Positions 4,192 through 17,614 of a stretch of 44,370 nucleotides of DNA are shown in pieces. The stretch is from a virus. Lineage: Duplodnaviria; Heunggongvirae; Uroviricota; Caudoviricetes. The DNA lies in the IMG/VR virus record IMGVR_UViG_3300045988_005581; one strand, 5' to 3'. The notes below the pieces were generated by a model. That model was not told where the DNA came from. It searched no databases and was given only the letters and a program-made list of their open reading frames with translations. Both the position numbers and the translations under genes were made by a program. Position 1 is the stretch's first letter, and every line of letters begins with the position of its first letter.

Positions 4192-5673
4192 ATGTTAACT
4201 ATGAACGGTCAGAATCAGGGTGTTAAGACAAAACACCGGGAATGGCTGCATCACTTCGATAAATGGCAGAAGGTACGCCACGCTCTTGAAGGCGACCTTA
4301 TCCGCTATCTGCGCAACGTCGGGAAGAACGAGCCTGACCAGACCTACGCAGCACAGCGACAGGAAGAATACGAGAACGGCGCTATCTGCTACAATTTCAC
4401 CAAACGCACGCTGGCGGGGATGACGGGGTCAGTGATGCGCAAAGACCCTGAGCAGATTATCCCGCCTGAACTTGAGTACCTGTTGCACAACGCTGACGGT
4501 TCAGGTGTCGGGCTGTGGCAGCACGCGCAGGATACGCTGATGGAGATTAACTCGATAGGCCGTGGCGGGTTGCTGGTGGACGCCCCGGAAACAGCCGCAG
4601 CAACGGCGGCAGAGCAGAACGCGGGATTATTAAACCCGGTAATCGCATTCTATACCGCGGAGAACATTATCAACTGGAGACTCACCCGCATCGGTTCAGT
4701 GAACCGCGTGACGATGGTTGTATTGCGTGAGGCATGGGAATACTCGGAACCAGGCGCTGAGTTTGAAACAAAATTCGGCGAGCAATACCGCGTCCTTGAC
4801 CTGATTGACGGTCGCTACCGCCAGCGCATCTACCGCTTCGATGCCGAAGGTGGCGCACAGGATGAAGTAATCGAAATCTTCCCGGAACTCGGCGAACAGT
4901 TGCGCGGTAAAATCCCGTTCACGTTCATTGGCGCAAGCAACAACGACGCCACTATAGACGATGCGCCTTTACTGCCGTTAGCTGAGCTAAATATAGGACA
5001 CTTCAGAAATTCGGCCGATGTGGAAGAGGCCAGCTTTATAGTAGGTCAACCGACACTGTTCATTGCCCCCGGCGAGAACATGAGCATGGAGCAGTGGAAA
5101 GAAGCCAACCCACACGGCATACGCATGGGGTCGCGTTCAGGCCACAACATCGGCTCCGGCGGAAATGCGTTTCTGGTTCAGGCGGCGGAAACTAACCTCG
5201 CCAAACAGAACATGCTGGATAAAGAGAATCAGGCCATCCAGATTGGCGCGCAGCTTATCACCCCGACGCAGCAAATCACCGCGGAATCGGCCCGCCTGCA
5301 ACGCGGCGCCGACACGTCAGTCATGGCAACAATAGCACGTAATGTAAGCATGGCGTATACCGATGCGTTGCGCTGGGTTGCGGGTATGCTTGGGCTTAGT
5401 GAAGATACTGAGATTGAGTTCAAGCTGAATATGGAATTCTTCCTGCAACCGATGACCGCTCAGGACCGCGCTCAGTGGATGGCGGATATTAACGCTGGCC
5501 TGCTACCCGCCACCGCTTACTATGCTGCGTTGCGCAAGGCAGGTGTGACTGACTGGACAGATGAGGACATTCAGAACGCTATTGAAGACGCACCTCTGCC
5601 GTTGGGTTCTGTTGCTCAGGTAGCGGGAGAGATTCCGCAGTCGGCGCAGCAACAGGACACCACTCAGCAGTAA
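4192..5673 (+). CDS. portal protein
   Basis: 493 aa directly downstream of TerL, strong RBS AAGAGGA, acidic Gln-rich C-terminus; assignment by size and synteny. Confidence 0.8.
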   Translation: MLTMNGQNQGVKTKHREWLHHFDKWQKVRHALEGDLIRYLRNVGKNEPDQTYAAQRQEEYENGAICYNFTKRTLAGMTGSVMRKDPEQIIPPELEYLLHNADGSGVGLWQHAQDTLMEINSIGRGGLLVDAPETAAATAAEQNAGLLNPVIAFYTAENIINWRLTRIGSVNRVTMVVLREAWEYSEPGAEFETKFGEQYRVLDLIDGRYRQRIYRFDAEGGAQDEVIEIFPELGEQLRGKIPFTFIGASNNDATIDDAPLLPLAELNIGHFRNSADVEEASFIVGQPTLFIAPGENMSMEQWKEANPHGIRMGSRSGHNIGSGGNAFLVQAAETNLAKQNMLDKENQAIQIGAQLITPTQQITAESARLQRGADTSVMATIARNVSMAYTDALRWVAGMLGLSEDTEIEFKLNMEFFLQPMTAQDRAQWMADINAGLLPATAYYAALRKAGVTDWTDEDIQNAIEDAPLPLGSVAQVAGEIPQSAQQQDTTQQ

Positions 5674-6786: not shown

Positions 6787-7247
6787 TGATGGGCTTTTTC
6801 AAAGTAACTGATGTGCCGTCACGTCGCGTAGTCCAGTACGCTCGGGTGTCTGGCTCTGGTGAGAACGTGGTGTTTATTGAGGATGAAAGTGTACTGGGTA
6901 CACCGGTAGACGACATGCCGTTTGCGGATAAAACCGGCATTGCGCTGCCTGCGGCCGGTATGCTCTATGAGATTCCGTATCTGGCGGACGCAGGCGATGT
7001 GTATTTCTCTGTGCAACCAAAAGACGCTGAACTGGCCGACGGCAGCGCGACTATCACTGTCGAAGTTAAAGCAGGTGAAGCGCCGTATGCACTGACCTGG
7101 TACAAAGACGGTAAGGAAGTTGTCAACGCCCCGGAAGAGGCACTTTCCTTGACGGTTAACGCAGTGGGTGAATACTTCGTTAAAGTTACCGATGCTGATG
7201 GTGTAGAGGCTGTCAGTAAAGCTGCGAAGGTCACTAAGCCCGAATGA
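6786..7247 (+). CDS. Ig-like domain protein (possible head decoration)
   Basis: C-terminal segment YALTWYKDGKEVV...GEYFVKVTDADG resembles Ig-like/BIG-type domains; shares the motif with ORF 10559..10909. Confidence 0.6.
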   Translation: MMGFFKVTDVPSRRVVQYARVSGSGENVVFIEDESVLGTPVDDMPFADKTGIALPAAGMLYEIPYLADAGDVYFSVQPKDAELADGSATITVEVKAGEAPYALTWYKDGKEVVNAPEEALSLTVNAVGEYFVKVTDADGVEAVSKAAKVTKPE

Positions 7248-7251
7248 TAAA

Positions 7252-7278
7252 AGGCCCCATTAAGGGGCCTTAGTTTTC
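7252..7278. terminator. bidirectional intrinsic terminator
   Basis: AGGCCCC (7252-7258) / GGGGCCT (7264-7270) with 5-nt loop; T-runs on both strands. Lies between convergent genes. Confidence 0.65.
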
Positions 7279-7480
7279 AACGGAATCTTGTGTTTAAATC
7301 CTGCTCGTGGACGACCCTCAGAACAGTGTCATAATCCCCGTATCTTCCAGGTTCAAATACATCTAATGCCTTGTAAGCAGACATTGCGTCAGGGAAAACC
7401 TGCAGAACCTTTTTAACACGGCACAAGTCACCGTCGAACTCTTCATCGAACTCTTGAACTACTTCGCAAATTGCATACAT
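7277..7480 (-). CDS. hypothetical acidic protein (67 aa), solitary antisense gene
   Basis: ATG at 7480 (minus) preceded by GGGGGTG RBS and a sigma70-like promoter; terminated by the bidirectional terminator. Confidence 0.5.
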   Translation of the reverse strand: MYAICEVVQEFDEEFDGDLCRVKKVLQVFPDAMSAYKALDVFEPGRYGDYDTVLRVVHEQDLNTRFR

Positions 7481-7507
7481 TTTTCACCCCCTGCTTAAGT
7501 TAACTGA

Positions 7508-7536
7508 ATAGTACCCTATTATATTGGGGTGTGCAA
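7508..7536 (-). promoter_or_regulatory. sigma70-like promoter TTGCAC-N17-TACTAT (minus strand) with embedded dyad
   Basis: On the minus strand: TTGCAC (7531-7536), 17 bp, TACTAT (7508-7513); dyad AATAG-N4-CTATT at 7507-7520. About 25 bp upstream of the ATG at 7480. Confidence 0.5.
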
Positions 7537-7602
7537 ACTATTTATTTACTTATTCCAGTTATTCCGCTCAATTGTAAATGTTGGAATAAACTATTCGAAT
7601 AG

Positions 7603-7631
7603 TTGACTTTTCACTAAAAATATGATAAGCT
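7603..7631 (+). promoter_or_regulatory. promoter P_A: TTGACT-N17-TGnTAAGCT (extended -10)
   Basis: TTGACT 7603-7608, 17-bp spacer, TG 7623-7624, TAAGCT 7626-7631. Identical core promoter at 39890..39918. Preceded by the perfect palindrome ACTATTCGAATAGT (7590-7603). Confidence 0.6.
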
Positions 7632-7637
7632 CCACCT

Positions 7638-7838
7638 GAGCTTGTGAAGTATGAACAAGCGACCGCGGCGCGGGCAGGTAACGGAGCGGGACGTAAGTCC
7701 TGAGTGTAGTTACGCTGACGCGTTCGGAAGGGCCATACTCTATTGCTTGTGTAAAAAGTAACAGGTTTACTTAGATTACGCCGTTTCTATGTTTAAATGA
7801 TAAGGACTAGCGCCCTGCTTTAAGGCAGGGCTTTACTT
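7638..7838 (+). ncRNA. candidate short terminated transcript / structured leader (element A)
   Basis: Region between P_A and the terminator at 7812..7838; shares a 43-nt identical 5' arm (7626-7668) and a 23-nt identical 3' arm (7723-7745) with element B at 39913-40032. Not shown to be transcribed. Confidence 0.35.
7812..7838 (+). terminator. intrinsic terminator 18 nt upstream of the spanin start
   Basis: GCCCTGC (7812-7818) / GCAGGGC (7825-7831), loop TTTAAG, then TTTACTT. Confidence 0.6.
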
Positions 7839-7855
7839 ATCGAGAAAGGGGAAAC

Positions 7856-8242
7856 ATGAATCTTAAAGCAACCGTCGTAGCAGGAGCATGTTTCATCATC
7901 CTGGCTTACACACACGGCATTTATCAGTACCGCAGCGGCTGGCACGAAGGCCGCGCTAATCTCGTTTCGCAGCAACAGCAGAAAGCACAGGCCGAGTTAG
8001 CGAAGAAAACACAACGGCAGCAGCAAGATGAATCAAAGGCCGCCGCCGCTGACAACGAAGGCAAGACGAAATCAGAGGTGATCACCCGTGAAGTCGTTAA
8101 GTACATTAAAACTCCTGGTCGCAGCGTGTGCACTTTCGACCCTGAGCGCGTGCAGCTCAAGTCCCGCGCCGTCGCAAACGCCAATTCCATCCCCGGATAC
8201 GACGATGATGCAGCCGCCGTGCAAGCTGGCACCGCCGAGTAG
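7856..8242 (+). CDS. i-spanin (Rz-like inner-membrane spanin)
   Basis: N-terminal TM segment (VVAGACFIILAY), charged Gln/Ala/Lys-rich coiled-coil-like middle region, and an out-of-frame lipoprotein ORF overlapping its 3' half. Confidence 0.7.
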   Translation: MNLKATVVAGACFIILAYTHGIYQYRSGWHEGRANLVSQQQQKAQAELAKKTQRQQQDESKAAAADNEGKTKSEVITREVVKYIKTPGRSVCTFDPERVQLKSRAVANANSIPGYDDDAAAVQAGTAE

Positions 8243-10558: not shown

Positions 10559-10909
10559 ATGGTTGATGTAATCAAACGTCGTATTACTGGTGTTTCTGAT
10601 GATTCTCCTGCCGATGGTCAGGTTGAAATCGATATGGCGAATATCTCGCCCGCATCTTTTTCTACCGCACTTGCCGCTACCACTACCAAGTCTACGGGGC
10701 AGACGATGACTCTTACCGTAGCCGTAACTGGCGGTCTGGCCCCGTACACATACCAGTGGTACAAAGATAACAACGCTATCCCAGGCGCTACCGCCGCCAC
10801 CTACGAGAAAACTTCGCTCGCTACTACCGATTCCGGTACGTATAAAGTGGTTGTCCACGATGTATATGGTAATATTATCTCCAGCAGCACCGTAGCAACT
10901 GTATCTTAA
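10559..10909 (+). CDS. Ig-like domain protein (116 aa)
   Basis: YTYQWYKDNNAIPGA...GTYKVVVHDVYGN resembles Ig-like domains; paralogous motif to 6786..7247. Confidence 0.6.
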   Translation: MVDVIKRRITGVSDDSPADGQVEIDMANISPASFSTALAATTTKSTGQTMTLTVAVTGGLAPYTYQWYKDNNAIPGATAATYEKTSLATTDSGTYKVVVHDVYGNIISSSTVATVS

Positions 10910-10945
10910 TACCGCAGCCCTTCGGGGCCGTAATAAGGAAAGGTC

Positions 10946-13424: not shown

Positions 13425-14591
13425 ATGGCTACAACTCCTTTTAAGGGCGCGAATACCGCGCAATTCTATGTGGCGGAAACTACCCCTGGCGTAACACCGA
13501 CTAACCCGGTATGGTCGCCGTTGCGTAACACGGGCGGCGTTCCCGCTGTAACCCGCGATGCACTGACTTCCAACGAACTGGACGGCAGCCGTGAAACTAC
13601 ATCCATCCGAACCGGTAACAAGCAGGTTAGCGGGGAGTATGCCATCGAACTTAGCTCTCGTAGCCAGGATGATTTCCTTGCGGGAGCGATGACTTCTACG
13701 TGGCAAGCTGGGGTAGAGATTACTGGCGCCGAAATTACGGTCGCCCCAGCAGGTAAAACATTCACCCGCGCTGCTGGTAGCTTCATTACTGGCGGTGTAG
13801 AAGTTGGCGACCTTATTGCGTTCACCGACTTAACCGGCGACAACGCAAAACCGTTTATCGTGACCGCGGTTTCCGCTCTGGTAGTTACGGGCGCAGGTAT
13901 TCAGCACACGCTGACAGCAGAGACAGTAACCACTGACGCAAAAACTGGCGACAAGCTGGAAACCGGTAACGCGTGTAAGACGTTCTCCATCCTGACGTGG
14001 TTCAAGGGCCAGTGTGGTAACCCGGACGCGTACATGCTGACCAAAGGTGTGGAAATCTCTGGCTTTACCGTAGAGCAGGCGGTTAACGCCATGGTCACCG
14101 GCAGCTTCCCGTTCATCGGCCTTAGTCAGGAGATTCTTACCGCGCCGCCGTCTGGCTCTGATTTCTCTCAGGTTACGTTCACCGATGAGCCGTTCTCGTC
14201 GGTAGATGTGTCGGTGTTCGATGGCTCCACGCCGTTGCGTTGCGATACTCTCACCATCACCAACGACAACGGAGCTTCCGCGCAGTTCGAACTCGGTAAC
14301 AGTAGCGTGGCGTTCGTCGAACGTGGACGCGCAGCTAACACATTCTCTATCTCTGGCAAGCTGTACGACATGGCGATGATTCAGAAGTTTATCAACGAGC
14401 AGCAGGTAGAGATTAACTCTATTCTGGCAGGGGTAAACGGGGCTATGTCTTTCAGTTTGAAACGTGCAGAGCTTACGGCGGTTACACCTGAGATTGGTGG
14501 GCCTGAGTCAATCACTCAGTCCATTGAAGGCCAGGCTACCGGCAATCGGTACCAGTCGTCTATCGTAATTCAACGTATCACCTACGCATAA
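13425..14591 (+). CDS. major tail (tube) protein
   Basis: ATG 13425 with AAGAGG RBS (tool start 13419 is GTG); about 388 aa, Thr/Gly/Ser-rich; followed by a strong terminator and precedes the chaperone/tape-measure genes. Confidence 0.7.
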   Translation: MATTPFKGANTAQFYVAETTPGVTPTNPVWSPLRNTGGVPAVTRDALTSNELDGSRETTSIRTGNKQVSGEYAIELSSRSQDDFLAGAMTSTWQAGVEITGAEITVAPAGKTFTRAAGSFITGGVEVGDLIAFTDLTGDNAKPFIVTAVSALVVTGAGIQHTLTAETVTTDAKTGDKLETGNACKTFSILTWFKGQCGNPDAYMLTKGVEISGFTVEQAVNAMVTGSFPFIGLSQEILTAPPSGSDFSQVTFTDEPFSSVDVSVFDGSTPLRCDTLTITNDNGASAQFELGNSSVAFVERGRAANTFSISGKLYDMAMIQKFINEQQVEINSILAGVNGAMSFSLKRAELTAVTPEIGGPESITQSIEGQATGNRYQSSIVIQRITYA

Positions 14592-14596
14592 AACTA

Positions 14597-14620
14597 AGGC
14601 CCCTTTCGGGGCCTTTTTCT
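14597..14620. terminator. bidirectional intrinsic terminator
   Basis: AGGCCCC (14597-14603) / GGGGCCT (14608-14614), loop TTTC, T-runs on both strands; separates the tail-shaft operon from the convergent minus-strand cassette. Confidence 0.7.
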
Positions 14621-15174
14621 TACAAACCTAATTTTAAAGCAATGTCTATAACGTTCGATTTAACGTCACCCGGTATGATGTAGGTGTCGTAATCTTTTAC
14701 ACCACTAACATCGTACAGATAGCCACGGCTATCGCAGATGAACGTATAGCCGTCACGATGGAGGCGGACGATTCGCACGTCATGCCCCGCGGCGACGATA
14801 GGGGCAACTTCACTGGCGAATCCACCATCGGACACTACAAAAACTTCGTCGCCGTCAGGCAAGTTTTCAGCAAGATACTTACCGAAATAATCATCGCCGA
14901 ATACCGGTTTAATGAATTGCTCAGAAATGGCAATCATTAACCGGCGGCGGGACAACCCATTAAGAAAACCCTCGGGTTTTTCTTTCCGCGCCCGGTCGTC
15001 GTAGCCGTCGAGAAATTCGTGGTAAGCATCCTGGCCTAACGCTGCCAAAGCAATATTGAACATTGGATTCTTGAAACTGGTAGTTCCTTTCGCAAAGCCC
15101 ATTTCTACCAGCGCCATAGCAAGCGTGTCTTTCCCGCAACCCGCAGGGCCATTAAGAATAATTACCTTAGCCAT
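14620..15174 (-). CDS. deoxynucleoside monophosphate kinase-like P-loop kinase
   Basis: P-loop GPAGCGKDT near the N-terminus; the GKDT variant and overall spacing resemble T4 gp1-type dNMP kinases (recalled, not aligned). 184 aa. Confidence 0.65.
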   Translation of the reverse strand: MAKVIILNGPAGCGKDTLAMALVEMGFAKGTTSFKNPMFNIALAALGQDAYHEFLDGYDDRARKEKPEGFLNGLSRRRLMIAISEQFIKPVFGDDYFGKYLAENLPDGDEVFVVSDGGFASEVAPIVAAGHDVRIVRLHRDGYTFICDSRGYLYDVSGVKDYDTYIIPGDVKSNVIDIALKLGL

Positions 15175-15662
15175 TATTTATCGCTCCCGTGTGGTTTTAA
15201 GTGTGTAGAGTTCCCGTTACAGTCGTATTCGGTAACTGCGTGTGCGGTTATGCCGAGGTCACGGAAATGCTTTATTACCGCTGGAGAGTCGTCGAACGCA
15301 CACAAGATTCTTTCCAGTCCGAAAGCACGCAACACCTCTTCTTTAATTACGATGTCTTTTCTGTTGTCGTGTTTGCTGCGCATGATTAGCGTGTCAAACC
15401 TAACGTTATTCTCTCGTAACCATTCGCGAGTCTCCTCCTCAGCGTCATCACTTCGCCCGGTAAGGATAATTATAGTAAGTCCGGAATGCCACAGTACGCT
15501 ACACAAATGGATATTGTCGTATATCGGAGCGTCATCTTTGCAGGCCATGTTAAATGGCTTCCACGCCCACGTTTCTCCGTAGTTATCTTTTGGTAACAGG
15601 TGTAAGCGATGGGTACCGTCAGCCAATGTCCCGTCTAAATCGAAAATTACAATATCTTTCAT
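15174..15662 (-). CDS. HAD-superfamily phosphatase
   Basis: N-terminal DLDGTL (HAD motif I, DxDxT); 162 aa; TAATG-coupled to the kinase gene. Confidence 0.7.
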   Translation of the reverse strand: MKDIVIFDLDGTLADGTHRLHLLPKDNYGETWAWKPFNMACKDDAPIYDNIHLCSVLWHSGLTIIILTGRSDDAEEETREWLRENNVRFDTLIMRSKHDNRKDIVIKEEVLRAFGLERILCAFDDSPAVIKHFRDLGITAHAVTEYDCNGNSTHLKPHGSDK

Positions 15663-16789
15663 CCCAGCATCTCCGGTGAAATAGTTAAACGTGCGACCTC
15701 GCCATATTCGGCGCTATAAGTAATTACATTTGCACTGCGGCCCGACATCCATCCGCCGCGAGAGGCGTAGGCGTCTTTAGCCGCTAAGGTGCGGTGTTGC
15801 TCAACAATCATGTTACGGCTTTCTACAATCTTCTGGTGGTGCAGATGGCCTACGTGGGCGTAGCTGTAAACACTCTCGCCGAACGCTTTACGGAACTTGG
15901 CAATCATAACCGGTTCGATAGCGTCGAATCGTGCTTTATGCCCGTGATGGAAGAACAGCGTCGTTTTGCCGTGTTGCACCATCTTGTAAACATCCGGCGA
16001 CGTATCGACGAACACGCGCGGCTCATTGTCGTACAGCGTACTGAACATCTCAGCCAACCAAATCATACCCGATTCGTCGTGATTCCCTTGCACGATAAGC
16101 AAGCGAACATTTTTATGCTTAACCAACGCCATATCAACGACACGGCGGACCATACGAATCATGTAACGGACCAGTTTCTGATAGCGCGTGTCAGCGTCAA
16201 GGACATGACCGCTTGCGGGCGTAACGGCATCAAGACTATCGAAGTGCGCTAAGTCGCCAAGAAGATTGATAACCCCAGTACCGGCATCCGGTGCTTTCTG
16301 GAATGCTGCATCGAACCAACGAGAGAACAGGTCTTCCGCAATCTTCATGTCCCAGTCGTCGCCGCTCTCGTCGGCCCAGGCCAGCATACCGAGATGGAAA
16401 TCGGATACAGTGTAAAGATTGAGCAGCTTATCGTCCCGTTTGGCACGAACGGCTTTAACAGGTGCAACGGGCGTAATCTCCGATTTCATGCCTTCGATCA
16501 CGGCTTTCATCAATTCAACCTGACGTTCGGCGTCAGTGTCGGTCTTAACCCATTGCAACTTAGTGTTGCCGAACTCATCCACCAGTGACGACGTTCCTTT
16601 AATCTTATAGCCGTCCGGGACAAGGTGGCTAACATCACGTCCGTGACCTACACCTTTCTTAGCCAGCTTCGCTTTACGGATACGAATTACGCGGTCTGAG
16701 ATGCCGTATTTACGGGCGATGTCTACATTCTTCATTCCGGCGTTCAATTCTTCCTGTAACTGTTCGTCGGTTATTTTCTTCCGGGCCAT
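15659..16789 (-). CDS. calcineurin-like metallophosphoesterase with N-terminal HTH-like domain
   Basis: Motifs SDFH, GDLAHFD, GNHDE, HHGH and GHLHH match metallophosphoesterase signatures; N-terminal NVDIARKYGISDRVIR is HTH-like. RBS GAGGAAG. Confidence 0.75.
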   Translation of the reverse strand: MARKKITDEQLQEELNAGMKNVDIARKYGISDRVIRIRKAKLAKKGVGHGRDVSHLVPDGYKIKGTSSLVDEFGNTKLQWVKTDTDAERQVELMKAVIEGMKSEITPVAPVKAVRAKRDDKLLNLYTVSDFHLGMLAWADESGDDWDMKIAEDLFSRWFDAAFQKAPDAGTGVINLLGDLAHFDSLDAVTPASGHVLDADTRYQKLVRYMIRMVRRVVDMALVKHKNVRLLIVQGNHDESGMIWLAEMFSTLYDNEPRVFVDTSPDVYKMVQHGKTTLFFHHGHKARFDAIEPVMIAKFRKAFGESVYSYAHVGHLHHQKIVESRNMIVEQHRTLAAKDAYASRGGWMSGRSANVITYSAEYGEVARLTISPEMLG

Positions 16790-16827
16790 GCTTACTTCCT
16801 CGTGTTTAGGATTTGTCTTATAGTAGC

Positions 16828-17019
16828 CTACTTCTCTTTCACGTTCGAGTTACAAGCCCAGATTAAAATGAATACCCACGGCAACAGAACCCACCCGAGA
16901 AATAAGTTAGCCATGAATATCGCTAGCTTTGCTTTATGGTTTCGCATATGGGCCACAAAAAACGGGATAAAATAAACGCCTACAACAATAATTAAAAAGA
17001 ACATAGCGATACCGGTCAT
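16828..17019 (-). CDS. superinfection-immunity-like small membrane protein
   Basis: Two TM segments with YFIPFFVAHMRNH...LFLGWVLLPWVFILIWA, resembling the Imm_superinfect family signature from memory. ATG 17019 with AGGAG RBS (tool start 17046 upstream). Confidence 0.6.
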   Translation of the reverse strand: MTGIAMFFLIIVVGVYFIPFFVAHMRNHKAKLAIFMANLFLGWVLLPWVFILIWACNSNVKEK

Positions 17020-17061
17020 AACATAACTCCTGATTTGAGATAACATCGTTGGTGTAAGTGA

Positions 17062-17090
17062 ATAGTACGCTATTATATCAGGGTGTGCAA
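17062..17090 (-). promoter_or_regulatory. sigma70-like promoter TTGCAC-N17-TACTAT (minus strand) with embedded dyad
   Basis: TTGCAC = 17085-17090, TACTAT = 17062-17067 on the minus strand; dyad AATAG-N4-CTATT 17061-17074; near-identical to the element at 7505-7540. Confidence 0.5.
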
Positions 17091-17197
17091 GTAGTATGTT
17101 AGAATAATTTTGCGCCTAGTGTCGCACACGAAAAGCGGGTGGTTCCCGTCTGGCGCATTTCCTTTAACCAGTAACCTCTTAACCAAAGGATTAAAGA

Positions 17198-17614
17198 ATG
17201 AAACTTTCTGATTTTTATTACGAAGCTGAAGCTGAAAAGGGTGCACGTATGCCGATACCATTAAAAGACGGTACCGATTCCGGGGAATGGCTTAATGTTG
17301 TTTCTCCTGAGGCAGACGTTGCCGTTAAGGCTATGCGCGCGTTCACCCTTGCATACCGGGCAGTGTTAGGGAAATTAAAACCGCTTCGTGATAAGTGCGA
17401 AGAGATGAAAGATTTCTCTGAATACAACCTGAAGATGGAAGACGCGGCGACGGACCTTAACCGTCAGTTAGCGGTTGAATTGGTTAACGGGTGGAGCCTT
17501 GACGACGAATTCAATAAAGAGAATCTGAACACACTCCTGACGCAATATAAACGACTCGCGGAACTTGTTGTTGTGTTTCATAACGAACAACTGCACCAGC
17601 TACAGGAAAAGTAG
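17198..17614 (+). CDS. tail assembly chaperone (G-like)
   Basis: 138 aa immediately upstream of the tape-measure gene, RBS AAGGA; the -1 frame stays open through its 3' end. Confidence 0.6.
   Translation: MKLSDFYYEAEAEKGARMPIPLKDGTDSGEWLNVVSPEADVAVKAMRAFTLAYRAVLGKLKPLRDKCEEMKDFSEYNLKMEDAATDLNRQLAVELVNGWSLDDEFNKENLNTLLTQYKRLAELVVVFHNEQLHQLQEK
17605..17611 (+). promoter_or_regulatory. putative -1 programmed ribosomal frameshift site (G GAA AAG)
   Basis: Heptamer GGAAAAG ends one codon before the chaperone stop (TAG 17612-17614); the -1 frame is open from 17584 to 17979. Analogous to the lambda G/GT site GGGAAAG. Confidence 0.35.

Follow-up and report, generated by a model that had tools for sequence, protein, structure and literature searches.

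What does a phage do with a metallophosphoesterase that carries its own helix–turn–helix? The locus that raises this question lies in a 44,370-nt stretch of Caudoviricetes DNA (IMG/VR record IMGVR_UViG_3300045988_005581; hereafter, the window), where a minus-strand gene encodes a 376-aa protein joining an N-terminal helix–turn–helix (HTH) to a metallophosphoesterase (MPE) core. An initial annotation took this fusion to be unusual and proposed that it might target the enzyme to nucleic acid or serve as a bifunctional regulator. Our preferred answer, held tentatively and with confidence a little short of even, is that the protein is an HTH-tethered DNA nuclease dependent on a divalent metal (probably Mn2+) and analogous to the A1/A2 proteins of phage T5. 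We favor this reading because the active site is complete and invariant, motif II takes the form GDxxH, a basic HTH is present family-wide, and the neighboring genes encode DNA- and nucleotide-acting enzymes; an HTH-less Campylobacter phage homologue that follows a ligase and a Holliday-junction resolvase, together with precedents for phage MPE nucleases, adds to the case.

The open reading frame (ORF) is real, and its catalytic core (Table 1) adopts an α/β-sandwich fold from residue 119 to the C terminus. The structural model was built by AlphaFold 2 (AF2) with 123 homologues (mean local confidence, pLDDT, 84.4; predicted TM-score, pTM, 0.74). The initial annotation credited the protein with a complete MPE motif set, and the alignments bear this out: motif I is D130-F-H132 (read SDFHLG), motif II is G178-D179-L-A-H182-F-D184, motif III is G235-N-H-D238, and H281-H-G-H284 and G314-H-L-H317 complete the series. 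Its assignment of motif II as GDxxD does not stand, however. The literal GDxxD (GDDWD, residues 143–147) is another conserved loop, and the canonical motif, of the form GDxxH(x)D, lies at the end of strand 169–177. Across 62 diverse homologues, D130, H132, D179, N236, H237, H282, and H317 are invariant, H315 is nearly so, and H182 of motif II is at least 90% conserved; the metal ligands are likewise invariant or nearly so in the 123-homologue alignment, where many Arg, Trp, and His residues outside the metal site are also invariant.

All three parts of the protein are under purifying selection, with ratios of nonsynonymous to synonymous substitution (dN/dS) of 0.15 for the HTH, 0.05 for the hairpin–helix that follows it, and 0.03 for the MPE core. 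Because the active site is complete and invariant and the core dN/dS is this low, we predict from the sequence that the protein is an active enzyme. One further element may bear on its substrate. The loop of residues 185–200 (positions 16190–16237, minus strand), C-terminal to motif II, ranks with the family's best-conserved segments (T190, P191, L197, D198, D200, and R202 are invariant) yet has the lowest model confidence (pLDDT 50–60); it may become ordered on a substrate or partner.

Placing this core within the superfamily is less direct. The protein falls short of the Pfam gathering thresholds, scoring 21.6 bits for Metallophos (threshold 27) and 18.9 for Metallophos_2 (threshold 21.5), and only 37 of the 123 homologues match Metallophos at E ≤ 0.01. 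Sequence searches of the PDB, with the single protein and with the 123-sequence profile, returned no MPE relative. Foldseek ranked the cAMP phosphodiesterase Rv0805, Mre11, and GpdQ at the top, with YfcE also matched, all at low TM-scores. The protein belongs to a divergent MPE clade. Since sequence libraries reach the superfamily level only, no solved structure is found by sequence, and fold scores are low, this clade is distinct; it leans, not decisively, toward the nuclease branch.

The fold ranking also fits a different reading, in which the enzyme is a phosphodiesterase of small nucleotides—cyclic mono-, di-, or oligonucleotide immune signals, Ap4A, NAD/ADP-ribose, or dNTPs—that serves counter-defense or reshapes nucleotide pools, with the HTH in a regulatory or scaffolding role. 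Rv0805 is the top match, followed by GpdQ and YfcE, and genes for mononucleotide-acting enzymes (MazG-like proteins, deoxynucleoside monophosphate (dNMP) kinases, a 5′-deoxynucleotidase, deoxyribosyltransferase-like proteins) are frequent neighbors of the family. On one contig a gene like those for the Acb2/Tad1 sponges lies near the homologue, and calcineurin-like domains of defense systems cleave NAD+ or dNTPs (bioRxiv 10.1101/2025.11.05.686725; 10.64898/2026.01.15.699771). Nonetheless, we regard the reading as unlikely. A family-wide HTH of DNA-binding type is hard to explain in a soluble small-molecule hydrolase, PADLOC defense-system models match none of the four proteins of the local gene cassette, and the invariant Arg, Trp, and His residues beyond the metal site suggest an extended, polymer-binding surface.

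For the N-terminal region, the initial annotation described a single domain of roughly 110 residues containing an HTH-like segment. The region is present, and the segment (residues 21–41) falls on two predicted helices, 21–28 and 32–44; the region is two modules, however, a variable HTH (residues 1–50) and a more conserved hairpin–helix (51–118). The HTH matches the resolvase, LuxR-GerE, and sigma-region-4 types in both profile and fold. From the single protein the matches are weak (GerE, E 0.026; FixJ or GerE in the PDB, E 0.4–1.2; also a weak sigma HTH). At the family level the HTH is clear: Pfam assigns HTH_1 to 48 of the 123 homologues, HTH_50 to 24, HTH_8 and HTH_28 to 15 each, HTH_23 to 11, and Sigma70_r4_2 and GerE to 8 each, and the pattern GS..AA..LG....T... 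is kept in members whose N termini cannot otherwise be aligned. Its net charge is +7 in this protein (family mean, +3.6), against an acidic core. As the HTH is real and basic and the core acidic, targeting to nucleic acid is the natural reading, and this proposal of the initial annotation gains support from the Pfam matches and the charge contrast. We infer that the HTH binds DNA.

The hairpin–helix is the family-specific part, and its constraint comes close to that of the enzyme core. Its motif KGxS..G....QWVK includes G65, S67, W80, and K82, all invariant among the 123 homologues; structure comparison against the PDB found no match for residues 51–118, the matches being confined to the HTH. 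The HTH, in turn, is the fastest-evolving part of the protein, its recognition helix is the least conserved part, and a few lineages only, the homologues in Campylobacter T4-like phages and Flavobacterium phages, keep the hairpin and lack the HTH altogether.

These last properties bear on whether the protein could be a bifunctional transcription factor, with the HTH binding phage operators or promoters (as a late-gene regulator or autoregulator, for example) and the enzyme acting as a sensor or second activity, as in BirA and NadR. The LuxR/sigma-region-4 type of the HTH would suit such a role, as would a weak match of residues 3–36 to PHROG 836 ("late transcriptional activator") and the location of the gene, in many phages, at the junction of early and lysis/terminase genes. 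Neighboring ORFs were examined in 37 diverse loci, of which 33 are IMG/VR viral contigs, and in 40 prophage loci, as raw counts with no background frequency. In 8 of the 37 loci a Q-like antiterminator, confirmed by Pfam Phage_antitermQ, lies immediately downstream, so the slot of a late regulator is already filled. A recognition helix that is the least conserved part, the loss of the HTH from the Campylobacter and Flavobacterium phage homologues, and the placement of the gene in the window within a moron-like cassette of the tail module rather than at a regulatory junction all argue against the idea, which we consider very unlikely. The bifunctional regulator of the initial annotation finds no support in these data. 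A narrower candidate, a late-gene regulator occupying the "Q slot," came from lambdoid contigs and phage tunus, in which the gene directly precedes lysis genes; it was rejected on the same Phage_antitermQ counts.

The fusion is the family norm, not an exception. The protein matches PHROG 704 ("DNA repair exonuclease") at E 3.5e-167, its residues 4–375 aligning with profile positions 2–389 of 390, so that the N-terminal region presented by the initial annotation as a rarity is a family-defining part, with the HTH–hairpin–MPE architecture common to about 2,000 phage genomes. The structure prediction and Foldseek search proposed with that annotation recovered both the HTH and the MPE folds; the rarity of the combination did not survive. 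By tblastn, 2,051 GenBank phage records match, of which 1,959 cover at least 80% of the protein; among the carriers are Guernseyvirinae, many Vibrio phages, Klebsiella T1-like phages, Rhodobacter phages, and one cyanophage, as well as T1-like Drexlerviridae, Jersey-like, and Kagunavirus phages, in which the protein is labeled "putative phosphoesterase." An exhaustive search found 4,624 clusters at 50% identity with E ≤ 1e-3 (1,148 with E ≤ 1e-30), mostly of 370–420 aa, and homologues occur in prophages of Pseudomonas, Xanthomonadales, Rhizobiales, Burkholderiales, and others.

Database names for members range over "DNA repair exonuclease," "phosphoesterase," "metallophosphoesterase," and "winged helix-turn-helix domain-containing protein," the last two through the NCBI pipeline, and the PHROG 704 name is itself an annotation by similarity. 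Identical or near-identical proteins are already deposited, and the present copy is an ordinary, catalogued member. What gives the case its value is the family at large and not this particular copy: PHROG 704, whose carriers include the classical T1 group, ranks with the most widely distributed phage proteins that have a clear enzymatic core, and our literature search found no paper characterizing a member.

Comparison with known systems sharpens both the resemblance to nucleases and its limits. Mre11 motif II reads GDLFH. The present core resembles those of Mre11, SbcD, and PolD-DP1, including this shared motif II histidine, at a sequence identity of only 11–18%, and those families lack the N-terminal HTH and hairpin. 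Mre11 and SbcD also carry a C-terminal capping domain and work with a Rad50/SbcC partner, whereas the present protein has no capping domain and no such partner is annotated in a close relative.

A second comparison is with the ligase-associated single-stranded DNA endonuclease MPE/PdeM of Pseudomonas putida, which is reported to be a Mn-dependent MPE nuclease needing no Rad50 (PMC7826289). Like the present protein it stands alone, and the Campylobacter phage homologue is also ligase-adjacent. One database record names a homologue after PdeM; the present protein scores below the NCBIfam cut-off for that family (TIGR04123). The metallophosphoesterase Gp48 of mycobacteriophage A10ZJ24 has phosphodiesterase activity; it damages the DNA of the host and promotes infection (PMC12287305). 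With its motif I already at residue 10, Gp48 lacks the N-terminal HTH and hairpin of the present protein, and the likeness is at the superfamily level.

T5 offers an analogue in organization. Its A1, a predicted metallophosphatase, is essential and sufficient for degradation of the host chromosome, works with the DNA-binding protein A2, and is located near the dNMP phosphatase gene dmp (bioRxiv 10.64898/2026.04.02.716235). In T5, as in the present cassette, an MPE, a DNA-binding module, and a dNMP-processing enzyme fall within one early unit, and A1 and the present protein have the extended motif III NHD..S.WL in common. Unlike the present protein, A1 comprises 556 aa, about 300 of them in an N-terminal half that is unrelated, and the DNA-binding partner of A1 is a protein in its own right. 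Comparing the 123-sequence profile with an 8-sequence profile of the A1 family (PHROG 1745) by hhalign gave 62% probability and E 7.6e-5 over only 39 columns; PHROG 704 and PHROG 1745 showed no cross-matches, and a T5 A2 profile did not match the HTH. We treat A1 as an analogue of the present protein, homology not being established.

Lambda NinI raises a further possibility, that the protein is a Ser/Thr/Tyr protein phosphatase equivalent to NinI (lambda-PPase) and occupying the same slot upstream of Q. The lambda gene order is ninG-ninH-ninI-Q. Both proteins belong to the MPE superfamily, and in lambdoid contigs PHROG 704 genes are found past NinB/NinG-type genes and ahead of Q, where ninI itself sits at the end of the nin region. 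The PPP signatures GDxHG, GDxVDRG, and GNHE of NinI are nevertheless absent, the corresponding motifs here being SDFHLG, GDLAHFD, and GNHD. NinI lacks the HTH and hairpin, its fold ranks low, contradicting the assignment, and it is not obvious what an HTH would do in a protein phosphatase. We judge this equivalence highly improbable. As a separate observation, one lambdoid metagenomic contig carries an extra small MPE of 174 aa in its nin-like region.

Returning to the DNA nuclease, the proposed mechanism assigns a task to each module. The basic resolvase/LuxR-type HTH (residues 1–50) would tether the enzyme to DNA; the conserved hairpin–helix (51–118) would pack on, or extend, the substrate surface; and the Mre11/SbcD-like binuclear core (119–376) would cleave phosphodiester bonds, acting without a Rad50-type partner. 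From the neighboring genes we infer a substrate and a role. In the virulent phage of the window, host or damaged DNA would be converted to ends or mononucleotides, which the adjacent HAD phosphatase and dNMP-kinase-like enzyme could then process; the cassette would represent the T5 arrangement of A1 (metallophosphatase), A2 (DNA-binding), and Dmp in fused, condensed form. Temperate relatives carry the enzyme among recombination genes, where it may process DNA ends instead. If the protein is such a DNA-tethered nuclease, it could account for the breakdown or processing of DNA by T1-like and Jersey-like phages in the absence of a Mre11–Rad50 complex, and it could provide a link to host systems that detect DNA degradation products.

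Several points weigh against this proposal. The nuclease activity is a prediction, and our literature search turned up no biochemistry on any PHROG 704 member. The protein ends with its core, leaving no capping domain, and a Rad50/SbcC gene is annotated neither in the complete genome of a relative that shares 95.5% identity with the 2.9-kb cassette query nor among the neighbors in the 77 loci. The similarity to T5 A1 comes down to those 39 columns around motif III, at 62% hhalign probability. The neighborhood signal may reflect the position of the gene at the end of replication and nucleotide-metabolism modules, the HAD phosphatase and kinase are dispensable partners, and many carriers are temperate prophages, in which wholesale degradation of host DNA is not expected.

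A bolder form of the nuclease proposal, which we hold to be doubtful, is that the protein is the host-chromosome-degrading nuclease of T1-like, Jersey-like, and Kagunavirus siphophages, a single-chain A1 plus A2. The released dNMPs would pass to variable neighbors (dNMP kinase, HAD/HD phosphatases, deoxyribosyltransferase-like and MazG-like proteins), which would also remove the methylated dAMP that the Metis and PUA-Cal-HAD defense systems sense as a danger signal; if so, the cassette would be a salvage unit and a counter-defense unit at once. PUA-Cal-HAD defense senses methylated dAMP from degraded host DNA and restricts the T1-like (Tunavirinae) phage Bas12 (bioRxiv 10.64898/2026.01.15.699771). 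The restriction of Bas12 fits degradation of host DNA by T1-like phages and says nothing of the gene responsible.

Genomic neighborhoods carry part of the argument for a nuclease. Family members are encoded in replication or nin-type regions, the immediate context of the gene is not fixed across carriers, and its recurring partners act on DNA or deoxynucleotides. Upstream in the 37 loci, the commonest products are NinB/Orf, NinG/Rap, exonuclease, nucleotide kinases, DNA polymerase, and DnaB. Downstream, besides the Q-like antiterminators, MazG-like dATP/dGTP pyrophosphohydrolases occur in five loci, and endolysin and holin, terminase, and polynucleotide-kinase-type (HAD) phosphatases are also found. 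Nine of the 40 prophage loci carry one related gene within three ORFs downstream of the MPE gene, identified as DUF1937/DUF4406 (nucleoside-deoxyribosyltransferase-like) in five, as a weak YfbR-like 5′-deoxynucleotidase in one, and without a Pfam match in four. These 5′-deoxynucleotidase-like neighbors belong to another family than T5 Dmp, for which tblastn found no match in any surveyed locus.

Individual carriers illustrate the range. In the T1-like phage tunus the gene follows helicase, VRR-NUC, and Dam genes and precedes holin; in a Vibrio phage it has lysis genes on one side and head genes on the other; and the HTH-less homologue of Campylobacter T4-like phages comes after DNA ligase and Holliday-junction resolvase genes. 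Two side observations concern similar settings. In Flavobacterium phage elemoA_8-3A (L152, positions 1–1392), the gene for an A1-like metallophosphatase runs into the start of one annotated "phosphoribosyl-ATP pyrophosphohydrolase," whose product we take, going by its name, to be MazG-like. A pairing of MPE and nucleotide pyrophosphohydrolase is also seen beside several PHROG 704 genes.

Table 1. Coordinates of the HTH-MPE gene, its modules, and the surrounding cassette in the window
Feature	Position	Strand	Basis or remark
Gene of interest, 376-aa HTH-metallophosphoesterase	15659..16789	-	ATG-started ORF; PHROG 704 member
Basic three-helix HTH, residues 1–50 (helices 8–16, 21–28, 32–44)	16640..16789	-	AF2 model, family profiles
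Family-specific β-hairpin (61–70, 76–85), helix (87–103), and linker; residues 51–118	16436..16639	-	AF2 model
Metallophosphoesterase catalytic core, residues 119–376 plus stop codon	15659..16435	-	Motifs, AF2 model
HAD phosphatase, polynucleotide-kinase-phosphatase type, 162 aa	15174..15662	-	Pfam HAD_PNKP E 3.3e-20; PHROG 415 E 3e-64
P-loop kinase, 184 aa, nearest phage deoxynucleoside monophosphate kinases	14620..15174	-	PHROG 139 E 3e-44
Imm-like superinfection-immunity membrane protein, first cassette gene	16828..17046	-	Pfam Imm_superinfect E 1.6e-13
Candidate extended -10 promoter element TGaTATAAT, putatively for the Imm-MPE-HAD-kinase unit	17072..17080	-	Read by eye
Bidirectional intrinsic-terminator-like hairpin, AAGGCCCC-loop-GGGGCCTT	14596..14615	.	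GC-rich stem with T-runs

The window belongs to a Kagunavirus-type Escherichia coli siphophage. Its 2.9-kb cassette region (positions 14400–17300) is about 99% identical to Escherichia phages BEU33 and BEU35 and 94–96% identical to annotated K1G-like siphophages of Kagunavirus type; in a close annotated relative, the gene is labeled "DNA repair exonuclease" and the short minus-strand cassette is flanked by the tail-tube gene on one side and by the tail chaperone and tape-measure genes on the other. In transcriptional order the cassette comprises the candidate -10 element, the Imm gene, the MPE gene, the HAD phosphatase, the P-loop kinase, and the hairpin (Table 1). The ATG of the HAD gene overlaps the MPE stop codon (ATGA), the kinase start overlaps the HAD stop codon by one base (TAATG), and both genes are co-transcribed with the MPE gene. 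The HAD_PNKP score of the phosphatase exceeds the Pfam cut-off. The kinase has weak P-loop matches in Pfam and NCBIfam, and among the PHROG profiles no polynucleotide kinase family matched it.

This coupling is one argument for the remaining alternative, nucleic-acid end healing, in which the MPE would act as a 2′,3′-cyclic phosphodiesterase or 3′-phosphatase, like the MPE module of Clostridium thermocellum Pnkp (CthPnkp) or lambda phosphatase, and with the HAD phosphatase and kinase would repair RNA or DNA broken by host defense nucleases. Translational coupling links the MPE with a HAD_PNKP phosphatase and with a P-loop kinase, the order MPE then HAD recurs in six loci whose MPE is only 50–56% identical (twice together with the kinase), and the Campylobacter phage homologue adjoins a ligase. 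Lambda phosphatase and CthPnkp are MPEs with reported 2′,3′-cyclic phosphodiesterase activity (PMC2190708). Compared with T4-type Pnkp end healing, however, the cassette shares the Pnkp-type HAD 3′-phosphatase, and the polynucleotide 5′-kinase domain and ligase partner were not found: the kinase matches dNMP kinases (PHROG 139) instead, and the close relative's genome has no annotated ligase. Folds like that of lambda phosphatase rank low, and a T4-type HAD phosphatase is reported to process 2′,3′-cyclic ends already (PMC3592404), which would make the MPE redundant. Many near-identical relatives, and the greater part of the family, also lack the HAD and kinase genes. We consider end healing improbable.

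The HAD–kinase pair (positions 14620–15662) acts like an exchangeable module: about half of the Kagunavirus relatives with an MPE at least 93% identical carry it and the others do not, a 76-aa ORF standing in its place in the one such locus inspected (L017, positions 7128–7358). An obligatory MPE–HAD–kinase unit was accordingly rejected, the pair being absent from many relatives at this level of MPE identity and from most of the diverse loci.

Three details concern the ends of the cassette. The mechanical ORF of the Imm-like protein starts at 17046, and an AGGAG at 17031–17027 precedes an in-frame ATG at 17019, which gives a 63-aa product as annotated in the close relative; this ATG is likely the true start. 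A consensus sigma-70 scan found no more sites than in shuffled sequence, and the candidate TGaTATAAT element was missed by it because there is no good -35 element. At the other end, where the tail-tube gene (plus strand) and the kinase gene (minus strand) converge, the hairpin has a perfect 8-bp GC-rich stem, is accompanied by T-runs on each strand, and closes both the tail-tube gene and the cassette; from these features it is likely a bidirectional terminator.

Further observations arose among the relatives. In lambdoid metagenomic contigs with a homologue, an Acb2/Tad1-hairpin-type protein, a candidate immune-signal sponge, is encoded just past the lysis genes (L004, positions 10565–10927; L005, positions 5105–5629). 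GenBank OR594183.1 (phage vB_EcoM_SHAK7858) is classified as Autographiviridae/Kayfunavirus, a taxonomy line that looks wrong because its gene content (tape measure, tail tube) and 95.5% identity over the cassette region indicate a Kagunavirus-type siphophage. In the same record, an HNH endonuclease gene (positions 7487–8002), probably encoding a homing endonuclease, is inserted in the lysis cassette between the holin genes and the endolysin gene.

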